This document shows positions 37,381 to 46,038 of a DNA stretch of 64,000 nucleotides, piece by piece. The translations under genes were made by a program, and so were the position numbers. The notes under the pieces are model-generated. The model was not told where the DNA came from. It was given only the letters and a program-made list of their open reading frames with translations, and did not search any database. Position 1 is the stretch's first letter. Each line of letters starts with the position of its first letter. The stretch spans positions 3,228 through 67,227 of the forward strand of contig CAYRZH010000004.1 of NCBI GenBank assembly GCA_964428845.1, read 5' to 3'. This DNA comes from an uncultured Candidatus Saccharibacteria bacterium. GTDB taxonomy: Bacteria > Patescibacteriota > Minisyncoccia > Phycocordibacterales > DATGWK01.

Positions 37381-37956
37381 TTACCCATTTTTACCTTTTT
37401 CTTGTCTGTGTTTAAGATCTCTTCCCCAAATATCTTCTTGAATCATTAAAACATCAGTATACCCATCAGAACCAGTGCGAAGTTCTTCCGAAATATTATT
37501 TTTAGATGAAAATACAAAAACTTTTTTACCACCCTTTTTTAAATGAGTTAACAGTGCCAAAAAATCAGAGTCGCCAGTGAAAAATATTGCTGTATCATAT
37601 TTTTTAAAATGATACATAGCATCTATTGTTATTTCGACGTCCATATTCCCCTTCTCTTGAATAGCTTCGCCATCCTTAGTTAAAATACTTATCCTTTTTA
37701 ATTCTTTTTTACGCACGACAAAGGACAAACCCTTCTTTAAGTAGGTAAAAAATTTATGTTTCCCATCCAGAGTATAGTCTCGAGTACCCTCAGCAGGATA
37801 TGCTGTGTAATAAAAGACTTCAATATTAGGTGCGTTAAATTTTGTTTTGAGAAAATTTCTGAGTTTTTCAAAATCAAAAAACCTTCCCTTCACCTTCTGG
37901 GCTTCCCAAAGATTTGATGCGTCAATAAATATGTATGCTGTATTTTTCTTTTCCAC
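37381..37956 (-). CDS. NYN (LabA-like, PIN-fold) domain protein, predicted RNase
   Basis: IFIDASNLW and GDSDF motifs typical of NYN/LabA nucleases. 191 aa. Confidence 0.65.
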   Translation of the reverse strand: MEKKNTAYIFIDASNLWEAQKVKGRFFDFEKLRNFLKTKFNAPNIEVFYYTAYPAEGTRDYTLDGKHKFFTYLKKGLSFVVRKKELKRISILTKDGEAIQEKGNMDVEITIDAMYHFKKYDTAIFFTGDSDFLALLTHLKKGGKKVFVFSSKNNISEELRTGSDGYTDVLMIQEDIWGRDLKHRQEKGKNG

Positions 37957-38313: not shown

Positions 38314-38910
38314 ATGAACACTATCTTGGTCATAGACGGAGAGAATTTTAAAGGCAAAGTCAAAGCCGTTTTTAAGGATGAGGGCAAGGAAAAACCTGTT
38401 TGGAACGAATATGATTTCAAAGGACTTTTCGATAAAGTTCTATCAGGAATCAAGATAACTAGAATGGTTTTTTATTTCGCTCGTATCAAAGAGCACGAAA
38501 ACAGTAAAGAGAAATCTCAACAACTTATTGAGGAACAACGGCTTCTCAAGACACATCTAGAGACACAGGGGTTTGAAGTTATTTTGAGCGGTCGAGTACG
38601 TGGACAGATGGAGACAGGTAGAGACGGCAAACAAGTTCTAATCTTCAAGGAAAAAGGTGTCGATGTAAAAATCGCAGTTGATATGGTTAGTCTTTCGTGC
38701 GACAAGAAAGTGAAGGAAATAATACTCGCCAGTTCTGACTCTGACCTACAACCAGCAATTAAAGAGGTGCGTGATAGAAAAGTACAGTGTATATATCTTG
38801 GTTTTGAGACACAACCAAACAAAGGAATGACATTTACAACAAACAGAACAATTTTAATAAGAAACTCTGAAATCTTAGAATTTGAAAAAGCTCAACAAAA
38901 GCTCATTTAG
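38314..38910 (+). CDS. NYN (LabA-like, PIN-fold) domain protein, paralogue
   Basis: LVIDGENF and SSDSDL motifs. 198 aa. Divergent from the first NYN gene. Confidence 0.65.
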   Translation: MNTILVIDGENFKGKVKAVFKDEGKEKPVWNEYDFKGLFDKVLSGIKITRMVFYFARIKEHENSKEKSQQLIEEQRLLKTHLETQGFEVILSGRVRGQMETGRDGKQVLIFKEKGVDVKIAVDMVSLSCDKKVKEIILASSDSDLQPAIKEVRDRKVQCIYLGFETQPNKGMTFTTNRTILIRNSEILEFEKAQQKLI

Positions 38911-39937
38911 TAATTATCCCAGTGCCATCCAGTGTTTCCAAAAGAAACTTAACCTCCTCTTGTAACTTTTTGGCATTTCCGTGTTTTAAAAGCCCCAAAT
39001 AAGATTGGACCGTTTCATGATTGCCATTCTTTACCTTAATACCACGGAACATTCTTTTTTTTGTTGTAGTGCGTATAACCCTATGGTCTGTAAAGTGGAC
39101 CCAACCTAAAAAATCAACCCCCGAAGCAACAGTGTTTATAGATATTTTATTCGGGTGAAGTTCCAAGTGTAATTTGGACCAAAGAAAATCGCTTATGTTT
39201 GGCACAATACTTTCAAGCCACTTTTTATCCTTTGAAAAAATCACGAAATCGTCGGCATAACGAATATAATGTTTCGCCTTAATTTTATGCTTCACAAACT
39301 GGTCAAATCTATTCATATAGATATTCACAAAAAGTTGAGATGTTAAATTACCCAAAGGAAGGCCAACTCCTTCTGCTGTTGAATGAAAACTGCCGACAAC
39401 TTCTGATATAAGCCATTGAATATCAATATCTAATATGTGATTTTTAATGATTTCGATAAGTACAGAGTGGTCAATGCTCGCAAAGAACTTTCGTATATCA
39501 CATTTTAAAACCCACACAGTCTTAATGTGATTTTCTGATACTTCATATGAAAAATCACGGAATGCATTGAGTGCTTTGTGCATACCCTTACCTAGCCTGC
39601 ATGAATAGGAATGTGCAGTAAAAGTTTTATCGAAAAATGGGTAGAGTATCCGATATATAGCGTGATGAAGTAGTCTGTCTCTTACTTTTGCTTTATGTAT
39701 ATTTCTTGGCTTTGGGTCAGATATATTAAACGCTTGATATGGAGAATGTTTATATCCTTTGCTTGCAAGGTCTTTGTGGAGTGTGATGATATTTTGCATT
39801 AGATTTCGCTCAAACTCTTGCACGTCTTTTCTATACCGTTTTCCGCAAACAAATTCACCCCACGCCTCGAGTAGATTTTCGATGGATATTATATTGCTGT
39901 ATTGGTGAGTTAGTGTTATCTTCTTCATGCAATGCAA
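38903..39937 (-). CDS. diversity-generating retroelement (DGR) reverse transcriptase
   Basis: RT motifs including YADDFVIFS. From memory of DGR RT sequences, GLPLGNLTSQLFVNIYMNRFD matches the [IVL]GxxxSQ variant of motif 4 that replaces QGxxSP in this clade. SYSCRLGKGMHKA lies N-terminal to it. 344 aa. Confidence 0.85.
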   Translation of the reverse strand: MHCMKKITLTHQYSNIISIENLLEAWGEFVCGKRYRKDVQEFERNLMQNIITLHKDLASKGYKHSPYQAFNISDPKPRNIHKAKVRDRLLHHAIYRILYPFFDKTFTAHSYSCRLGKGMHKALNAFRDFSYEVSENHIKTVWVLKCDIRKFFASIDHSVLIEIIKNHILDIDIQWLISEVVGSFHSTAEGVGLPLGNLTSQLFVNIYMNRFDQFVKHKIKAKHYIRYADDFVIFSKDKKWLESIVPNISDFLWSKLHLELHPNKISINTVASGVDFLGWVHFTDHRVIRTTTKKRMFRGIKVKNGNHETVQSYLGLLKHGNAKKLQEEVKFLLETLDGTGIITK

Positions 39938-39995
39938 ACTATGAAGACCCCCCCAACGGGTTTTACCGCTTTTACAGAGGTTAAAAGAGGTCTAC

Positions 39996-40325
39996 TTGTT
40001 GTGGTATGGATATTACCAAACATTACCGAAGCTACACAGACACTCACTTGGTTATAGAATTGACACTCTTTTCGTTGAAAATATAGAAGCAATATCAATT
40101 GCGAGTTTTTTGTCGAAAGAAGAAAAACATCCGTGGGTTCGACTGGCTATAAGAAAAGTAGACACTCTGAAAATACTTCTAATGGTCTTGTGGGAAACTA
40201 AATCAATAGATAACAAAAAGTATATAGCATTGTCGGTAAAAATAGACGAGATAGGAAAAATGCTTGGCGGTTGGAATGGTCAACTCTCTAAACAAAACTC
40301 TCCCATAAAAGTGGGAGAGAAATGA
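39996..40325 (+). CDS. avd: DGR accessory variability determinant (Avd, four-helix-bundle family); encoded on the strand opposite to the RT, TR and target
   Basis: 109-aa basic protein whose pattern ...LGYRIDTLFVENIEAISIA...IDEIGKMLGGW matches the Avd/four-helix-bundle family. Sits between the RT and the TR. Confidence 0.7.
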   Translation: MLWYGYYQTLPKLHRHSLGYRIDTLFVENIEAISIASFLSKEEKHPWVRLAIRKVDTLKILLMVLWETKSIDNKKYIALSVKIDEIGKMLGGWNGQLSKQNSPIKVGEK

Positions 40326-40331
40326 AGTGAT

Positions 40332-40461
40332 TTGCGACGAACGAAAACGAAGCGGTTGTTGCCATTCCAGAAGTTGTCAGGGTTGCCGTTGTTGCCATTG
40401 AGCCAACGCTCATCGTTGTCGTGTTCGACATTGAACACGTTGAGGTTGCCGTTCGAGTCAG
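40332..40461 (-). repeat. DGR template repeat (TR), ~130 nt
   Basis: Aligns base-for-base with the 3' end of the target gene. Minus-strand sense is AAC/AAT-rich (NGNLNVFNVEHDNDERWLNGNNGNPDNFWNGNNRFVFVRRK in the VR frame). Confidence 0.9.
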
Positions 40462-40820
40462 TTTTTGTACAGGGTGTCATCCATGTCACCACCCTTTGAA
40501 TACTCTCGGGGTTGTATCGTATTCGGCATCGTAATGCCCTAACACCCTATACCAAGTATCTTCATTTTTTTGAAGTGTCTACATACACCACTCTATCCAA
40601 AACCATGGTCGTGGATATTCTCGGTGTATGGATACTGGATTCGGTAGCAAGAAACCTTAATCTCTTGCATATTCACCTACTACCGTCCAGTATTGTATCA
40701 AAATATATAAAAAGAAGCCCCACACATTGCTGTGCAGGGCTGGAGTTGTACGCGTATCTCCAAAGCGTGAAGGACCAAGTTCCAAGGGTCCAAAAGACCC
40801 GAGGTCCAGAGGTCCAAGTG

Positions 40821-41444
40821 CTACTTGCGACGAACGAAAACGAAGCGGCCGAAGCCATCCCAGAAGTCGCCAGGGTCGCCGTCGTCGCCATCGAGCCAAC
40901 GCCCAACGTCGTCGCGTCCGACAACGAACACGCTGAGGCTGCCGTCCGAGCCAGCGATGGGCTTCATAGCAACGATGAGCCACTCACCCTTCGGCTGGTC
41001 CGCATACTGCAAACGCAGTTGGGGACCGACTTCTGCAGGACAAGGGTCAAGACCGAGTTTGTCGGCCTTGGCTTGAATGTCCAAGAGAGTTGCTCCGTCC
41101 TCGAAGCCGAGTTCAGCAACAGAAACGTTCACGAGCTCCACGTCCATCGCGGTCTCGCTCGCCGTGAAGGCGGGCTTGCCGAGGATGTCGTTGCCCCAGT
41201 CGCCGATTTTCATTCCCGCCGCCTTGATGGCTTTGCGGAAGTCGTCGGCGGTCTTGAGCCCTGTGCCGAGCTTCAAGGTCTTCCAGACCTTCAAATCGGT
41301 CGTGGCTGACGCAGGCGGACAGAGATTGCTGAGGAACTTCTTGAGGCCCCTCGGGTTATCAATCCATCCCTGCATCACGTTCCCATCCATGTCGGGCAGG
41401 TTTTCCGAGATGCGAGCGATGAGTTTTGCTGTCTGCTTATCCAT
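40821..41444 (-). CDS. DGR variable target protein (207 aa) with C-terminal VR; likely C-type-lectin/FGE-like fold
   Basis: The C-terminal 43 aa are encoded by the VR (..SDGSLSVFVVGRDDVGRWLDGDDGDPGDFWDGFGRFVFVRRK), with a GFGRFV ending resembling a CLec-type VR. Gene GC is elevated. Confidence 0.8.
   Translation of the reverse strand: MDKQTAKLIARISENLPDMDGNVMQGWIDNPRGLKKFLSNLCPPASATTDLKVWKTLKLGTGLKTADDFRKAIKAAGMKIGDWGNDILGKPAFTASETAMDVELVNVSVAELGFEDGATLLDIQAKADKLGLDPCPAEVGPQLRLQYADQPKGEWLIVAMKPIAGSDGSLSVFVVGRDDVGRWLDGDDGDPGDFWDGFGRFVFVRRK
40825..40954 (-). repeat. DGR variable repeat (VR)
   Basis: ~130 nt aligned to the TR. I counted ~24 mismatches by eye, and every one is at a TR adenine on the minus strand; no other position differs. 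The 3' ~25 nt (cgcttcgttttcgttcgtcgcaa) are identical, IMH-like. Hairpin gggtc-tttt-gaccc lies ~25 nt downstream. Confidence 0.9.
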
Positions 41445-41823: not shown

Positions 41824-42315
41824 CTATTGTTTCAAAATGGTATTTATCTTTTCCAAAAGCTCGCTTGTGCTGAATCGTCCATGATTTTCTAATCTCAATA
41901 ACGGTAACCCCGCATTTTTAAGCACTCGTTCGACCTCACCATCTCGGTCTTTGCGGTCTTGTCTCTCGTGCGTTCGGTCATCAAGTTCTATTGCAAGCTT
42001 TGGTGAGATATATGCTTTATCACACAAAACAAAATCTACTGATTTTTGGCTTATATGTCGAAATGCTCCCTTCCAGTTTTGACCAACTACTTTGTTGTCT
42101 ATAATTGAAGGAAGGTGAACCTGTGGAAAAACGTGATATTTTTCTCCCACAGCGACAACCAGAGCGTTATAGCATTCATGTTCTGCCCGAGACATAAAAA
42201 AGTTCTTTTGTTTGTACTGATATTTTTTTGGCTCATCTCTTCCACCACGAAAAATCCCAAGAATAATAATCGCTACTACCATGACCACGACAATTATAAT
42301 GATTGGACCTAACAT
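41824..42315 (-). CDS. membrane-anchored DUF2726-like (restriction-endonuclease-fold) protein
   Basis: N-terminal TM segment followed by a ~130-aa domain resembling DUF2726/NERD-type nuclease-fold proteins (VDFVL...ELDDRTHER). Confidence 0.4.
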   Translation of the reverse strand: MLGPIIIIVVVMVVAIIILGIFRGGRDEPKKYQYKQKNFFMSRAEHECYNALVVAVGEKYHVFPQVHLPSIIDNKVVGQNWKGAFRHISQKSVDFVLCDKAYISPKLAIELDDRTHERQDRKDRDGEVERVLKNAGLPLLRLENHGRFSTSELLEKINTILKQ

Positions 42316-42324
42316 GAAGACATT

Positions 42325-42855
42325 CTAGCTTATTTTACTATTTACTATTCCAAGCTCAACAAATCGCTTTTTCATAAAGGCATCTCGCTCTTTGTTTATT
42401 TCGTCATTATTTTTACCAGAAAACTTCATTTTCCCAGCTTCCATGTATACGGGGTAACGTTTTATATAACCTTTTGGATTATTCAGATAACCTATATAGC
42501 ATTCGAGTAGTTCATCGAAAACAACGTAGGCAGTAACAATGAAATCCACCGCCCCTAAAGCAAGTCCTTTCTTCATTTCTTCCTCCTGACTAAAATTACT
42601 CAAAAATATTACTGGTATATCTCTAGTTCTCGAGTCAGCTTTGAGCATTGTGATGGCCTCATACCCAGTAATTTTTGGCATTAGAATATCTAAAGAAATT
42701 AAGTCTGGTTTTATCTTTACAACTTGATTAACGAAATCTGGGTCTGGAATGTTAATTACCTCTGCATCCATTCCAGCATTTCTAAAACTTTTTAAGAACA
42801 AATCGGTTAAGAATTTATCGTCATCTACAATAAGAATTTTATATTTTTTGTTCAT
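42325..42855 (-). CDS. stand-alone receiver (REC) domain protein with a short C-terminal extension
   Basis: ILIVDDD...phospho-acceptor Asp (ISLDILMP)...conserved Lys. No DNA-binding output domain. Confidence 0.65.
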   Translation of the reverse strand: MNKKYKILIVDDDKFLTDLFLKSFRNAGMDAEVINIPDPDFVNQVVKIKPDLISLDILMPKITGYEAITMLKADSRTRDIPVIFLSNFSQEEEMKKGLALGAVDFIVTAYVVFDELLECYIGYLNNPKGYIKRYPVYMEAGKMKFSGKNNDEINKERDAFMKKRFVELGIVNSKIS

Positions 42856-42862
42856 AGTAATT

Positions 42863-43354
42863 TTAATTATTATTTATCTCTGCATTAAAATGCTTATCTG
42901 GGTGTTTTGCAAGCATCTCTTTGAGTTTATTGAAATTAGCATATTCATCTAAATTAAGGGGTGGCATCATAGGGCACCGATGATTTTTATCCCCTTCACA
43001 AGGATTGATTACAGCGTCTTTTGCCACACCATCAACAATTACGGTCTTACGCACAAAATCCCATGTCGCTTGGTCTAAAATCTCCATAATAAAAAATGGT
43101 CCCTCTGCTGGAAAATCGCTTCTGTTATCCTTCTTTAATTCTCCTTCAAGATTTACGAGATACCAATTCGCAAACAGGACTTCGTTGAAGATGGCCAAAT
43201 GGAAATCTCCTATAAGCATCTGTGCCGTCTTGGTTCTATATTTGAAAGTAATGTAGCTATCTTCCCCAGATGGAAACTTTCTCACTAAAACAAAAACACC
43301 ACGTTTGTATCCTGTAACGGTCGTATCGGTTGTTTTTTGGTTCTTTATTTCCAT
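42863..43354 (-). CDS. hypothetical protein
   Basis: 163-aa ORF. No recognisable motif. Confidence 0.35.
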   Translation of the reverse strand: MEIKNQKTTDTTVTGYKRGVFVLVRKFPSGEDSYITFKYRTKTAQMLIGDFHLAIFNEVLFANWYLVNLEGELKKDNRSDFPAEGPFFIMEILDQATWDFVRKTVIVDGVAKDAVINPCEGDKNHRCPMMPPLNLDEYANFNKLKEMLAKHPDKHFNAEINNN

Positions 43355-46038
43355 TATTTTTTGTATAGTCTCACAACTTCACCAAAGTTCTTTGCTTTAT
43401 TATCATTCCACTCTTCCTGTCTTATATATAAAGCTTTATAGGTCATCCTGCTCTGCCGATTATTTACATCCTCACACCACAGGACCAATCTTTCAAACTT
43501 AAGTTTGTCATCTTCTCCTTCTCTCCCCTTGGTCTCAATAATAAATACATTTTTATCGTCTTGCTTTACGAAAAAATCAGGGTAATAAGTGGCTATAAAA
43601 CCTTCTTCGTTTTTATATTCTATTCGGAGAGCATTTGCTTCTTTGTTTTTGAAATTCTTAGCAAACGAAACAATATCATCACACTTCTCAAGAAAATCCG
43701 AAAAGGTGAGCTCAAAATCACTATCACCGACAATCTTATTGAATACTGACTTCTTAGGTATTAGGTATGACTTATCATTCACTACGAACGGTCTGGCATC
43801 GCTAATCTTTATATAATTCCTTATTTCGGCATCACCTTTATCTTCGACCGTAAGCTCGTTGATACCTTTCTTAAATACATCCTTTATCAGCTTTATATAC
43901 TCAACTTCGGAGAGGTTCCTTAGAATGTTGAGGTCTGAAAGATTTATAGGGTCGTCAAACATATACTCCTCAACGAAGTCTTTGACCTTCCCGAACAAAA
44001 TGTCGTAGCAACCGAACAATCTCAATTCTCTCATTATGGCTTGAGCAAAGAATCCAACAACACTCTGATAATTGGGCTCAATGTCTCCAGACAAGATGGT
44101 TGTATGGTGCACTTTCTCATCTACAACATCTTTGAAAACTATTTCTCTTTTTTCCTGTTCAGTGAAAGTCTTAATTTTAACTTTCTTATTTCCAAACCTA
44201 GAAACATCCAATTCAGCTAAATTCTTATACTCTCTTTGTATCCTTGGAGACAACACAGGAATTTCAATATCAAGTTTTTCTATGTCTTTTTTAGGATTTT
44301 CTTTATCAACTTCTACGACCATTGGAGTAATCGGCTTAGTTCCTCTACCCATCAACCGCTTCTCAAGCAATACACCTTCACCCCTAATAGACTCAACAAA
44401 GTCCATAAATGCTGGCGTTCCGATAACACTCACATATTCTTCAACATCCTCTCTTCCAAAGAACATTCTTCTCAAGCCTCGGCCAAGTGTCTGTTCTGGC
44501 AATATTTTAGAGTCTGCGGCATAGGGGCGTAGTCCCACAATTGTAGTAACATTTTTCACATCCCAGCCTTCCTTGAGCATCATCACTGAAACGATGACCT
44601 TGAATGGGCTCTCCCAGCTATCTATGTTGTTGGCTTGTTTTCTTAACACCTCCAGTTCTTCCTTGTTTCTTCCAGAAACATTTTCTGAAATTTCACCGCT
44701 TTTGTTTGTGTGTATGGTCAGGACCGCACCTTTTAGGTCTGCGAAACTCGTCTGAATATACTCAGCCACTTCATCACAATTCTGCGTATCATCAGTCATT
44801 ATGAAAAGGATTGATTTCTTGCCAGCAGGTTCAAGTTCTTTGTATGTTTTTCTCCACTCTTCAATACCAAGATTTATATAGTCTCTATACTTTTCACTAA
44901 ACAAGGTACTCTGATTTGGTTTCAATTTCCCTCGGCTCGCCTCATCAGGAACAACAGGTGTTTTAACTATTCTCTGATGAATTGCCTCCACTAGAGGATA
45001 GTCAGAAATTGTCTGCACAAATATGGACCCATCATTTTTCTTAGGAGTAGCTGTAACATCAAGTTGCAACGATAATTTTGTACCCTTTTGCTTCAGTTTA
45101 TTATCTATATCTCTTATAGATTTTAACCAAGCATTTTCTTCGTGAATATGGTGAGCCTCATCATTTATAACAACCAATTCATCAATATCTCTTACTATCA
45201 TTCCCAAATCAACTGTTGAGTCGCTAGTTTTTGTTACTGGTTTGTCACCCAAGAAATAGTCCGAGGCATCAGAGTCGTCGGCACTTGCCTCTCTAACATC
45301 ACTTTCAAAAACTCTATGAATGTTGGTTAGAAAAATATTGCCCGTGTCAGAAATTCCCCTTAGGTCGTCTTGGAGGTGTAAGGTTATTTGAAAATCATCT
45401 TTCCAATTCTGTCCTTGGTAACCGTTGTCTGGTAATACTGGGTCTGTAAAAAATATCTTCAATCCTTCAAAGTCATTTCTAATCCTTTCAAAAACAATAA
45501 CATTGGGTGTTATAAGAAGAAAATTTTTTGCCAAGCTTGAATTTGGTTCATACAATTTATGAAAATACGCCCAAGCGACAAGTAAACTCATTATTTTGGT
45601 CTTACCTGCACCAGTAGCCATTTTGATAACAAACCGAAGCCAGTCTTCTGTGAACATTCCAGCACTCAATACACCTGTAGAGTTATATCTAATTAAGTCG
45701 TGTTTATCTTTGACTTTAGCAACCTCATAGAGCCATATAACGGTCTCTATGGCTTCTCTTTGAGCAAAGTAGTAACGAAATGTATAAGTGGACCCATCCT
45801 TGTCATAGAGAATATGCTCGTCCTTAAACCACCAATTCAGAAGAGTCTTTGAGGTATCGCTTGCTCCTTCATAATTTTTATCTCGCCAACCTTGGACCTT
45901 TTTTCTTAAGTCTGCAACTAGAGGTGGCAGAAGTTTGTCGTAACCCTTCTCTCTCAAGTCCTCGTCAGCAGGGAACCATCTGATAGCTGGGTCCAGAATT
46001 GCATATGGGTCACGTGGAAAATTTTTATGCAGTGCCAT
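43354..46038 (-). CDS. res: type III restriction enzyme Res subunit (SF2 helicase + endonuclease)
   Basis: Helicase motif I ATGAGKT, motif II DEAHH and further SF2 motifs. 894 aa. Immediately downstream of the mod gene. Confidence 0.8.
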   Translation of the reverse strand: MALHKNFPRDPYAILDPAIRWFPADEDLREKGYDKLLPPLVADLRKKVQGWRDKNYEGASDTSKTLLNWWFKDEHILYDKDGSTYTFRYYFAQREAIETVIWLYEVAKVKDKHDLIRYNSTGVLSAGMFTEDWLRFVIKMATGAGKTKIMSLLVAWAYFHKLYEPNSSLAKNFLLITPNVIVFERIRNDFEGLKIFFTDPVLPDNGYQGQNWKDDFQITLHLQDDLRGISDTGNIFLTNIHRVFESDVREASADDSDASDYFLGDKPVTKTSDSTVDLGMIVRDIDELVVINDEAHHIHEENAWLKSIRDIDNKLKQKGTKLSLQLDVTATPKKNDGSIFVQTISDYPLVEAIHQRIVKTPVVPDEASRGKLKPNQSTLFSEKYRDYINLGIEEWRKTYKELEPAGKKSILFIMTDDTQNCDEVAEYIQTSFADLKGAVLTIHTNKSGEISENVSGRNKEELEVLRKQANNIDSWESPFKVIVSVMMLKEGWDVKNVTTIVGLRPYAADSKILPEQTLGRGLRRMFFGREDVEEYVSVIGTPAFMDFVESIRGEGVLLEKRLMGRGTKPITPMVVEVDKENPKKDIEKLDIEIPVLSPRIQREYKNLAELDVSRFGNKKVKIKTFTEQEKREIVFKDVVDEKVHHTTILSGDIEPNYQSVVGFFAQAIMRELRLFGCYDILFGKVKDFVEEYMFDDPINLSDLNILRNLSEVEYIKLIKDVFKKGINELTVEDKGDAEIRNYIKISDARPFVVNDKSYLIPKKSVFNKIVGDSDFELTFSDFLEKCDDIVSFAKNFKNKEANALRIEYKNEEGFIATYYPDFFVKQDDKNVFIIETKGREGEDDKLKFERLVLWCEDVNNRQSRMTYKALYIRQEEWNDNKAKNFGEVVRLYKK

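Follow-up and report, generated by a model that had tools for sequence, protein, structure and literature searches.

The diversity-generating retroelements (DGRs) that come closest to the locus described here are those found in the candidate phyla radiation (CPR) and in DPANN, which Wu et al. 2018 (NAR, PMC5758913) treated on the dataset of Paul et al. 2017. According to the accessible part of that paper, the architecture B3, in which a reversed avd gene lies between the template repeat (TR) and the reverse transcriptase (RT) gene and which is written TR-(avd)-RT, makes up '90% of the CPR set'. The same part of the text states that a DGR with components on both strands must have two or more transcription units and that co-transcription of TR and RT is not obligatory. 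We analysed a DGR in a stretch of 64,000 nucleotides, called the window in the following, on contig CAYRZH010000004.1 of an uncultured Candidatus Saccharibacteria bacterium (GenBank assembly GCA_964428845.1). The element is complete: RT, TR, variable repeat (VR) and target gene lie on the minus strand and avd lies on the plus strand between TR and RT, which in the sense orientation (the minus strand of the window) gives the order target-VR, TR, opposite-strand avd, RT. We read the locus as a complete, ordinary member of a very large clade of Patescibacteria/CPR DGRs with the B3 layout, in which separate transcription units are most likely, and give this reading a probability of roughly 0.8.

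A more distant point of comparison is the DGR of Bordetella phage BPP-1 (mtd-avd-TR-brt), whose parts all lie on one strand and whose essential RNA consists of 20 nt of avd, the TR and a 140-nt spacer RNA (Sp) between TR and brt (Handa et al. 2018; 10.1101/2023.10.23.563531). The two elements have in common the RT together with a pentamer-type four-helix-bundle Avd (the model of the window protein matches 4DWL and 8UB7), the mutagenesis of adenines between TR and VR, a stem-loop just after the TR and an inverted repeat after the VR. They differ in that the avd of the window is inverted and fills the TR-RT interval, in the length between the TR and a U-tract behind the stem-loop (about 45 nt, against the 140-nt Sp of BPP-1) and in the place of the large conserved structured RNA, which in the window lies 5' of the TR.

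By its coordinates the locus has the B3 core order with avd reversed, and as far as the accessible text of Wu et al. 2018 (PMC5758913) goes, its layout differs in nothing from that of the CPR/DPANN B3 DGRs. Target-VR, TR, inverted avd and RT are arranged in the same order and orientation, and both have in common the single adjacent target, the adenine-specific differences between TR and VR and the host group: among 8000 RT homologues, the closest named ones belong mostly to Patescibacteria, Paceibacterota or another CPR lineage. A promoter of the TR-RNA's own, a 5' domain of 220 nt, a terminator that runs over the stop codon of avd and a C or CA tract in the 5' coding region of this gene, all of them putative features treated below, are not mentioned in that part of the text. 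The first-pass annotation of this DNA had placed avd on the plus strand and RT, TR sense strand and target on the minus strand, with RT and avd divergent, and this strand layout is borne out by the open reading frames (ORFs), by Pfam and by the TR/VR repeat. It had also taken the layout for a departure from the norm, which does not fit the share of B3 in the CPR set as given in the accessible text of Wu et al. 2018 (PMC5758913).

Related loci were fetched from species-representative genomes (80 loci) and from metagenomes (80 loci; together L001-L160), with RT identities of 60-77%, and 136 of them had sufficient upstream DNA for the placement of avd. The avd gene is found divergent, immediately upstream of RT and on the opposite strand in 134 of these 136 loci (75 of 75 in the first set). 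About 58 relatives have a callable TR/VR pair; in these the TR lies on the RT strand and abuts the 3' end of avd, and the VR is positioned about 450-500 nt farther upstream of the TR. The order, the orientation and even the spacing of the cassette are clade-wide. The clade as a whole conserves the inverted avd, which is no rearrangement of this one cassette as the first-pass annotation had considered, and the inversion as such is already known for the CPR lineage.

DGR-type RTs are defined by an RVT_1 domain, the motif-4 sequence [I/L/V]GxxxSQ and the catalytic box YxDD. All three are present in the RT of the window, the latter two as LGNLTSQ and YADD, and an identical protein of 341 aa was found in the database (P0001). 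The TR and the VR differ at 22 positions, all of which are TR adenines: on the plus strand each is a T in the TR (18 T>C and 4 T>A), which is an A on the minus strand, and the TR sense strand and the target therefore share the strand of the RT. The 3'-most 22 nt are identical between TR and VR, after which the two diverge, and a single nucleotide separates the end of the VR from the stop codon of the 207-aa target ORF. As in other DGRs, the VR is thus found at the 3' end of the target, with a shared 3' block (initiation of mutagenic homing, IMH, and its TR counterpart IMH*) and, as is often the case, with an inverted repeat downstream. This repeat (40772-40815) forms a fold in the window, and most relatives have one at the same position with a different sequence. 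It probably corresponds to the inverted repeat after the IMH in the Bordetella and Legionella DGRs; for other DGRs, a post-IMH inverted repeat is described in the accessible text of Wu et al. 2018 (PMC5758913). Farther downstream, the relatives have a hairpin and a T-run at the position equivalent to 40706-40741 with varying stem sequences, and the target gene transcript would end at this terminator of its own.

Between near-identical relatives, almost all VR differences are found where the TR has an A: 22 of 23 between L019 and L020, 19 of 19 between L017 and L018, 4 of 4 between L146 and L147 and 3 of 3 between L032 and L116. A second sample of the window's own strain was looked for and not found, and the indirect evidence for ongoing retrohoming comes from these relatives.

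No Pfam or NCBIfam family is assigned to the target protein. It has 1375 homologues, and the few that carry a name come from Patescibacteria. An AlphaFold2 (AF2) model has a predicted local distance difference test score (pLDDT) of 90, and the top 16 Foldseek matches in the PDB are all C-type lectin domains, with weak E-values of 0.1-1.4. At the sequence level the locus shows the features of a DGR and of the B3 architecture throughout; the exception is the target fold, since the C-type lectin matches are statistically weak. The target gene is also rich in guanine and cytosine (GC), with a GC content of 0.57-0.59 against 0.36 for RT in the window, and the excess holds outside the VR too. In the family, the median GC content is 0.54 for the target and 0.39 for RT, and the difference exceeds 0.08 in 44 of 58 loci.

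The avd gene encodes a genuine Avd, that is a small basic four-helix-bundle homologue of Bordetella Avd beside a DGR RT. From the TTG at 39996 (39996-40325), the ORF matches the Pfam family bAvd (Pfam: PF22296) with an E-value of 1.8e-10 and 41.7 bits against a cut-off of 40. An AF2 model built on 40 homologues folds into a four-helix bundle (pLDDT 87.8), for which the best Foldseek match is Bordetella Avd (PDB: 4DWL) with TM-scores of 0.79/0.89 and a root mean square deviation of 1.5 Å, followed by the Avd chains in cryo-electron microscopy structures of bRT-Avd-RNA. By sequence alone, Avd has no match in the PDB. Searches of the whole 64-kb window with Avd, RT and TR (tblastn and blastn) found no second avd, RT, TR or VR. 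The inverted orientation seen by the first-pass annotation can thus be put down neither to a spurious Avd call nor to a second, co-oriented avd.

Table 1. Features of the DGR locus in the window. Positions are those of the window; promoter, terminator and switch elements are predictions.
Feature	Position	Strand	Basis or remark
DGR reverse transcriptase, 341 aa	38903..39928 (ATG 39928; ORF open 38903-39937)	-	Pfam RVT_1, E 2.1e-25
Upstream ATGs (39932 and 39941, +2 frame)	39932..39943	+	C6 or C9 would read MQTMKTPQRVLPLL... in the avd frame
Candidate RT -10 hexamer TAGTTT	39936..39941	-	exactly 7 nt before the RT ATG; read from the sequence
avd	39945..40325 (stop TGA 40323-40325; first in-frame canonical start TTG 39996)	+	Pfam, NCBIfam, AF2
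C7 homopolymer (G7 on the RT strand)	39948..39954	+	in the 5' coding region of avd, at 19 nt from the start codon of RT; candidate for a slipped-strand switch
Putative TR-RNA 3' stem-loop (40319..40298) and U-tract (40297..40288)	40288..40319	-	RNAalifold and a uniform hairpin/T-tract criterion
Template repeat (TR)	40332..40461	-	130-nt direct repeat; 36 adenines on the sense strand
Structured 5' domain of the TR-RNA	40462..40686	-	RNAalifold; ~220 nt, 10 helices
Predicted extended -10 promoter of the TR-RNA (TGATACAAT)	40692..40700	-	predicted transcription start ~40684-40686
Terminator-like hairpin and T-run, predicted end of the target transcript	40706..40741	-	11-bp stem, then TCTTTTTATA
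Nested inverted repeat (GGACC..GGGTC TTTT GACCC..GGTCC)	40772..40815	-	starts 6 nt past the target stop; three-tier
Target gene of the DGR (207 aa), with the VR in 3' position	40821..41444 (stop TAG 40823..40821)	-	ORF
Variable repeat (VR)	40825..40954	-	130 nt, 83% identical to the TR

Beyond the layout, the comparison of relatives points to two family-wide leads with good comparative support, a repeat tract at the start of avd and a structured domain of the TR-RNA. The avd frame is open and homologous to Avd back to 39945, upstream of the TTG at 39996. In 98 relatives, the 15 codons upstream of this TTG have a coding pattern, with an entropy of 1.5-1.7 bits at third codon positions (H3) against 0.6-0.95 bits at second ones (H2). 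The non-coding gap before the RT ATG is about 19 nt, followed by the C7 run; the 58-bp intergenic region of the first-pass annotation stems from a truncated ORF call for avd. The two genes would start head to head, less than 20 nt plus the homopolymer tract apart.

The run at 39948-39954 is the only C7 or G7 run in the 64-kb window. With seven C's, avd is out of phase with all upstream starts; the frame has a TGA at 39942-39944 and no ATG, GTG or TTG ahead of the run. Six C's would give MKTPQRVLPLLQRLKEVY..., and full-length homologues begin alike, for example with MKSTPPPRILPLL or MLPPPRILPLL; across the tract the full-length Avds of the database read M..PPP..R(I/L)LPLLQK. A tract is found in 103 of 109 distinct related junctions, as a C-run of 6-14 (mode 10) in 99 and as (CA)8-13 in four, and is missing in six. 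Its distance to the 'LP' codons of Avd is 8-13 nt, even where RT is 124-256 nt away, and the codons after it are under protein-level selection. Of the junctions with a tract, 40 have avd in the frame of an upstream start and 63 do not. All six junctions without a tract have an intact in-frame ORF, and several of them resemble interrupted tracts (CCCCACC, CCTCC). In five lineages with 98-100% identical flanks of 160 nt the tract length differs by 1-2 nt (C11/C10, C11/C9, C11/C10, C8/C9 and C11/C10), and in other lineages the same length is found in up to seven assemblies. No conserved start codon was found downstream of the tract in 90 loci. A start after the tract was considered and rejected: a canonical codon is present in 40 of the 90 loci, the listed cases are nearly all TTG at leucine positions, and elsewhere the codon is TTA, CTA or CTG.

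Tracts of this kind are known from contingency loci, such as those of Neisseria, Haemophilus, Campylobacter and the fim genes of Bordetella, in which homopolymer or dinucleotide repeats lie in 5' coding regions or in promoter spacers. The likeness extends to a tract of 7-14 C's or of (CA)n close to the 5' end of an ORF, to length polymorphism between otherwise identical strains, to the representation of all three frames and to 'locked' in-frame alleles where the tract is interrupted. Within the window, the C7 run lies inside the reading frame, between the upstream ATGs and the predicted helix 1 of Avd, and length variation between identical flanks is found in the five lineages, where assembly error is possible. 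Unlike in the known contingency loci, the gene is an accessory factor of hypermutation and not a surface antigen or a restriction system, the hosts are uncultured CPR bacteria, and the variation is known from differences between genomes and not from switching within a population. In the searchable literature on DGR homopolymers, phase variation and frameshift, from which the main CPR DGR paper falls outside the coverage, we found nothing on tracts in avd. We give an even chance to the reading that the tract in the 5' coding part of avd is a slipped-strand (contingency) switch that would turn Avd, and hence mutagenic retrohoming, on and off, with the C7 of the window in the OFF state.

The strongest rival to a switch holds that the tract serves without any change of DNA length, through polymerase stuttering, through +1/-1 ribosomal slippage on CCC or as a promoter spacer or start element for RT and/or avd, or that the scatter of frames is partly an assembly error. 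It would account for the phases, since the in-phase share (40 of 103, 39%) is no higher than that of the other two frames (101 of 206, 49%), and, by a manual tally, about half of the 28 loci (26 independent) with an ATG at most 20 nt from the run need a +1 shift. The recent diversification of VRs at TR adenines in lineages with an out-of-frame consensus avd (L019/L020, L146/L147 and L032/L116) also speaks for it; loci of this kind are not dead, because the VRs of near-identical strains differ almost only at those adenines. A run in the promoter spacer is suggested by the hexamer TANNNT on the RT strand: 37 of 97 loci have it directly adjoining the G-run, and 31 of 110 relatives have it at a distance of exactly 7 nt from the RT ATG, the background at any one offset being about 2-4. 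If TAGTTT is the -10 hexamer of the window, the RT mRNA would be leaderless or nearly so. The replacement of poly-C by (CA)8-13 at the same site in four junction classes favours hypermutability itself over a signal specific to poly-C/G or slippage on CCC. Moreover, where 124-256 nt separate avd from RT the tract follows the N-terminus of avd and not the start of RT, the tract-less junctions are in frame without exception (6 of 6), and equal lengths in up to seven assemblies of some lineages argue against random error. Altogether we consider this explanation unlikely, though a serious competitor of the slipped-strand switch.

The second lead is the RNA that carries the TR. The region 40462-40686 is, on strong evidence, a structured RNA on the minus strand with the TR at its 3' side. 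An RNAalifold consensus of 38 loci has 57 pairs in this 5' domain, 47 of which have compensatory double changes. Counted over sequences and pairs, 97.1% of the cells are paired, against 36-50% when the partners are slid by 1-3 columns, and 410 cells are compensatory (double-change), against 48-87 in these controls; none of 500 shuffles reaches the observed value. The 5' sequence motif of the domain is found with at most two mismatches in 62 of 100 unique relatives, and in 61 a second conserved motif follows in order. At gathering thresholds, Rfam 15 finds only six tRNAs in the whole window, and in a permissive search of 39700-40900 (E<=10) the matches are at chance level. A known RT-associated RNA motif was therefore rejected as a candidate, as no Rfam 15 model fits 39700-40900. 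The motifs RT-1 to RT-19 of Rfam (Weinberg et al. 2017, PMC5737381) are likewise structured RNAs beside bacterial RT genes, at least one of them in a DGR: RT-10 sits in the TR-brt spacer of BPP-1. The domain of the window differs from them in lying upstream of the TR and not between TR and RT, and in having no Rfam 15 match at E<=10.

Upstream of the domain, a candidate promoter of the extended -10 type emerged solely from the alignment of the VR-TR spacers of relatives. The sequence TGNTANNNT is found upstream of the conserved motif AGTAGGTGAATA in 39 of 48 relatives, with a spacing of 9-10 nt in most. A generic -35/-10 scan of the window did not pick up a TR promoter, because the candidate at 40692-40700 has no -35 element. 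The first-pass annotation had proposed that TR-RNA could be made from a promoter of its own and had pointed to 40462-40560 for it; the idea gains support from the candidate, and the proposed location gives way to the one farther upstream.

At the other end, the relatives have a stem-loop of 8-11 bp directly 3' of the TR, followed by a nearly invariant GTTTTGTTTT. Its RNAalifold consensus has seven pairs, six of which show compensatory changes. By a uniform criterion, 55 of 60 distinct loci have a hairpin with a T-tract after the TR; control windows in the RT gene have one in 15 of 600 cases (2.5%), and the avd strand of the same region has one in none of the 60. The element thus has the make-up of a rho-independent terminator, with a GC-rich stem-loop and, directly behind it, a U-tract on the transcribed strand. 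At 40288-40319 it lies across the end of the avd coding sequence on the opposite strand, stop codon included, and the codon-position pattern of avd is lost exactly there, over the last ~12 codons. In section 10 of the preprint by Handa et al. (10.1101/2023.10.23.563531), putative Avd-binding stem-loops downstream of the TR are reported for 207 of 278 Avd-type DGRs, including those of CPR. The hairpin after the TR is probably the same 'Avd-binding stem-loop', joined here with a terminator-like U-tract. A pairing of the U-tract with an A-rich stretch upstream of the TR (a 'cPRT stop duplex') was considered and rejected; it shows no covariation, because the upstream A-rich sequence is not conserved and the U-tract is nearly invariant.

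Taken with its predicted ends, the TR-RNA would be a free-standing non-coding RNA of about 400 nt (~40686 to 40288 on the minus strand) that is convergent on avd, and its order would be an extended -10 promoter of its own, the folded 5' domain of about 220 nt, the TR of 130 nt and the 3' stem-loop with the U-tract. With the TR-RNA as a unit of its own, a transcript running through TR, antisense avd and RT is not required. We infer that the 5' domain may substitute for the Sp RNA of the Bordetella phage in assembling the ribonucleoprotein (RNP). The TR-RNA unit and its 5' domain are not mentioned in the accessible text of Wu et al. 2018 (PMC5758913); they are apparently unreported. Joining both leads, we propose, tentatively and at somewhat less than even odds, that the switch gates the hypermutation machine, whereby a subpopulation would diversify and the window would be OFF, and that the inverted avd has displaced the spacer RNA, with the RNP elements moved to the 5' domain on a free-standing TR-RNA.

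The avd strand has no terminator-like signal in the region 40325-40800: 0 of 60 relatives show one within ~145 nt, and the window shows none before 41433. A transcript of avd could therefore cross the TR and the 5' domain in antisense, and a sense/antisense interplay is possible.

A free-standing TR-RNA has a competitor in one long read-through transcript of TR, antisense avd and RT, in which antisense avd would take the role of Sp and the stem-loop would serve solely for Avd binding or priming. The geometry permits it, and most loci have no strong independent RT promoter. The Bordetella phage needs 140 nt downstream of the TR, with the priming adenosine within Sp, and Handa et al. (10.1101/2023.10.23.563531) read the stem-loops just after the TR as Avd-binding in CPR DGRs too. 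It does not explain why the stem-loop and the nearly invariant U-tract after it are terminator-like in 55 of 60 loci and in 2.5% of control windows, nor why avd past the 3' element is conserved at the protein level only. In the alignment of relatives the third codon positions of the avd body vary freely (entropy of 1.5-1.9 bits), and because of this no Sp-like antisense RNA is conserved there; the conserved structured RNA sits 5' of the TR instead. We regard the read-through transcript as improbable, and the terminator-like element largely removes the earlier worry that any transcript joining TR to RT would carry antisense avd.

The start of avd bears on the tract, since a true beginning at the TTG 39996 (or 39999), with the upstream similarity fortuitous, would restore the non-coding gap of 58 bp. 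This TTG is the first canonical in-frame start and is used by the public annotation, in which avd is deposited as a truncated call of 108 aa (P0121). Extending avd upstream, however, widens the Pfam coverage from profile positions 15-104 to 4-104, and the extended protein covers positions 1-102 of 104 in the NCBIfam model DivGenRetAVD with an E-value of 1e-15 (57.9 bits, below the cut-off of 80 bits). In the confident AF2 model, helix 1 spans residues 8-24, the TTG is residue 18, and the upstream codons provide the first 10 of the 17 predicted residues of the helix. Added to the codon-like substitution pattern in 98 relatives, and to the many homologues translated through these codons, this makes a start at the TTG very unlikely, and we keep to an avd that extends to 39945.

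Many relatives, among them the ON-phase P0193, P0142 and P0148, have the start codon of avd 23-35 nt within the coding region of RT on the other strand, in a head-to-head overlap (the equivalent in the window is 39905-39945). The N-termini of these Avds, M-x-x-L-N-F-H, correspond to the conserved N-terminus of RT read in antisense. Recoding of UGA, by which the TGA at 39942-39944 would be read as sense and the avd frame rescued, was considered and rejected: avd itself stops at a TGA and would enter the TR.

That the DGR is decaying or rearranged, with avd flipped by a local inversion and the element inactive or impaired, is hardly credible: avd as assembled does lack an in-frame canonical start for its full length, and the deposited protein is the truncated one, but 134 of 136 relatives, with RT identities of 60-77%, have the same orientation and spacing, the layout is the published B3 architecture in the accessible text of Wu et al. 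2018, and both the 22 of 22 adenine-specific VR differences and the VRs of near-identical relatives, which differ only at A positions even in lineages with an out-of-frame consensus avd, point to active elements.

Several points weigh against the overall reading of a B3 DGR with a switchable avd and a separately transcribed TR-RNA. Homopolymer lengths can be wrong in short-read or nanopore metagenome assemblies, some of the 'pairs' may share raw data, and the variation in tract length is that of relatives and not of the window's own population. The call of ON or OFF states is crude, as it accepts any ATG, GTG or TTG, and a nearly random in-phase fraction (39% vs 49%) is also expected from transcriptional or ribosomal slippage or from an undecoded tract. 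The definition of the RT promoter is weak, with TANNNT at 7 nt from the ATG in just 31 of 110 loci. Promoter, transcription start and termination of the TR-RNA are all predicted from sequence, and the stem-loop with its U-tract could serve only to bind Avd or to prime, with read-through into antisense avd and RT. Finally, part of these features may already be described in the CPR DGR literature.

Two NYN-domain proteins adjoin the DGR, at 37381-37956 (minus strand) and at 38314-38910 (plus strand). The gene of the latter is convergent with RT and shares its last 8 nt with the RT 3' end (38903-38910). An ORF of 265 aa (40512-41309, plus strand) lies antisense to the target and to the 5' domain of the TR-RNA and most likely came about as a by-product of the high GC content of the target. 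Upstream of the target and on the same strand, the region 41824-46038 (minus strand) encodes a DUF2726/DUF559-like protein, a response-regulator receiver protein, an unassigned 163-aa ORF and an 894-aa ORF. The six tRNA genes in the window fit a chromosomal rather than a phage context. A scan of viral contigs was uninformative, with one RT at 37% identity and no similar avd.

As stated, the finding of an inverted avd re-discovers the standard layout of CPR DGRs and changes nothing. The candidate promoter, the TR-RNA of about 400 nt with its covariation-supported fold and the stem-loop/terminator are parts for an in vitro reconstitution of a DGR from an uncultivated lineage, and this parts list would permit asking whether the cis-priming model of Bordetella transfers to the DGRs of CPR. 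The conserved slippery tract in avd suggests a stochastic gating of DGR activity in CPR bacteria; if the switch is true, only a subpopulation would diversify its target at any time. The tract would also explain why avd in these loci is so often mis-annotated as a short ORF, or why such loci might be discarded as defective, and surveys of DGRs that filter for an intact avd would undercount or misjudge them.

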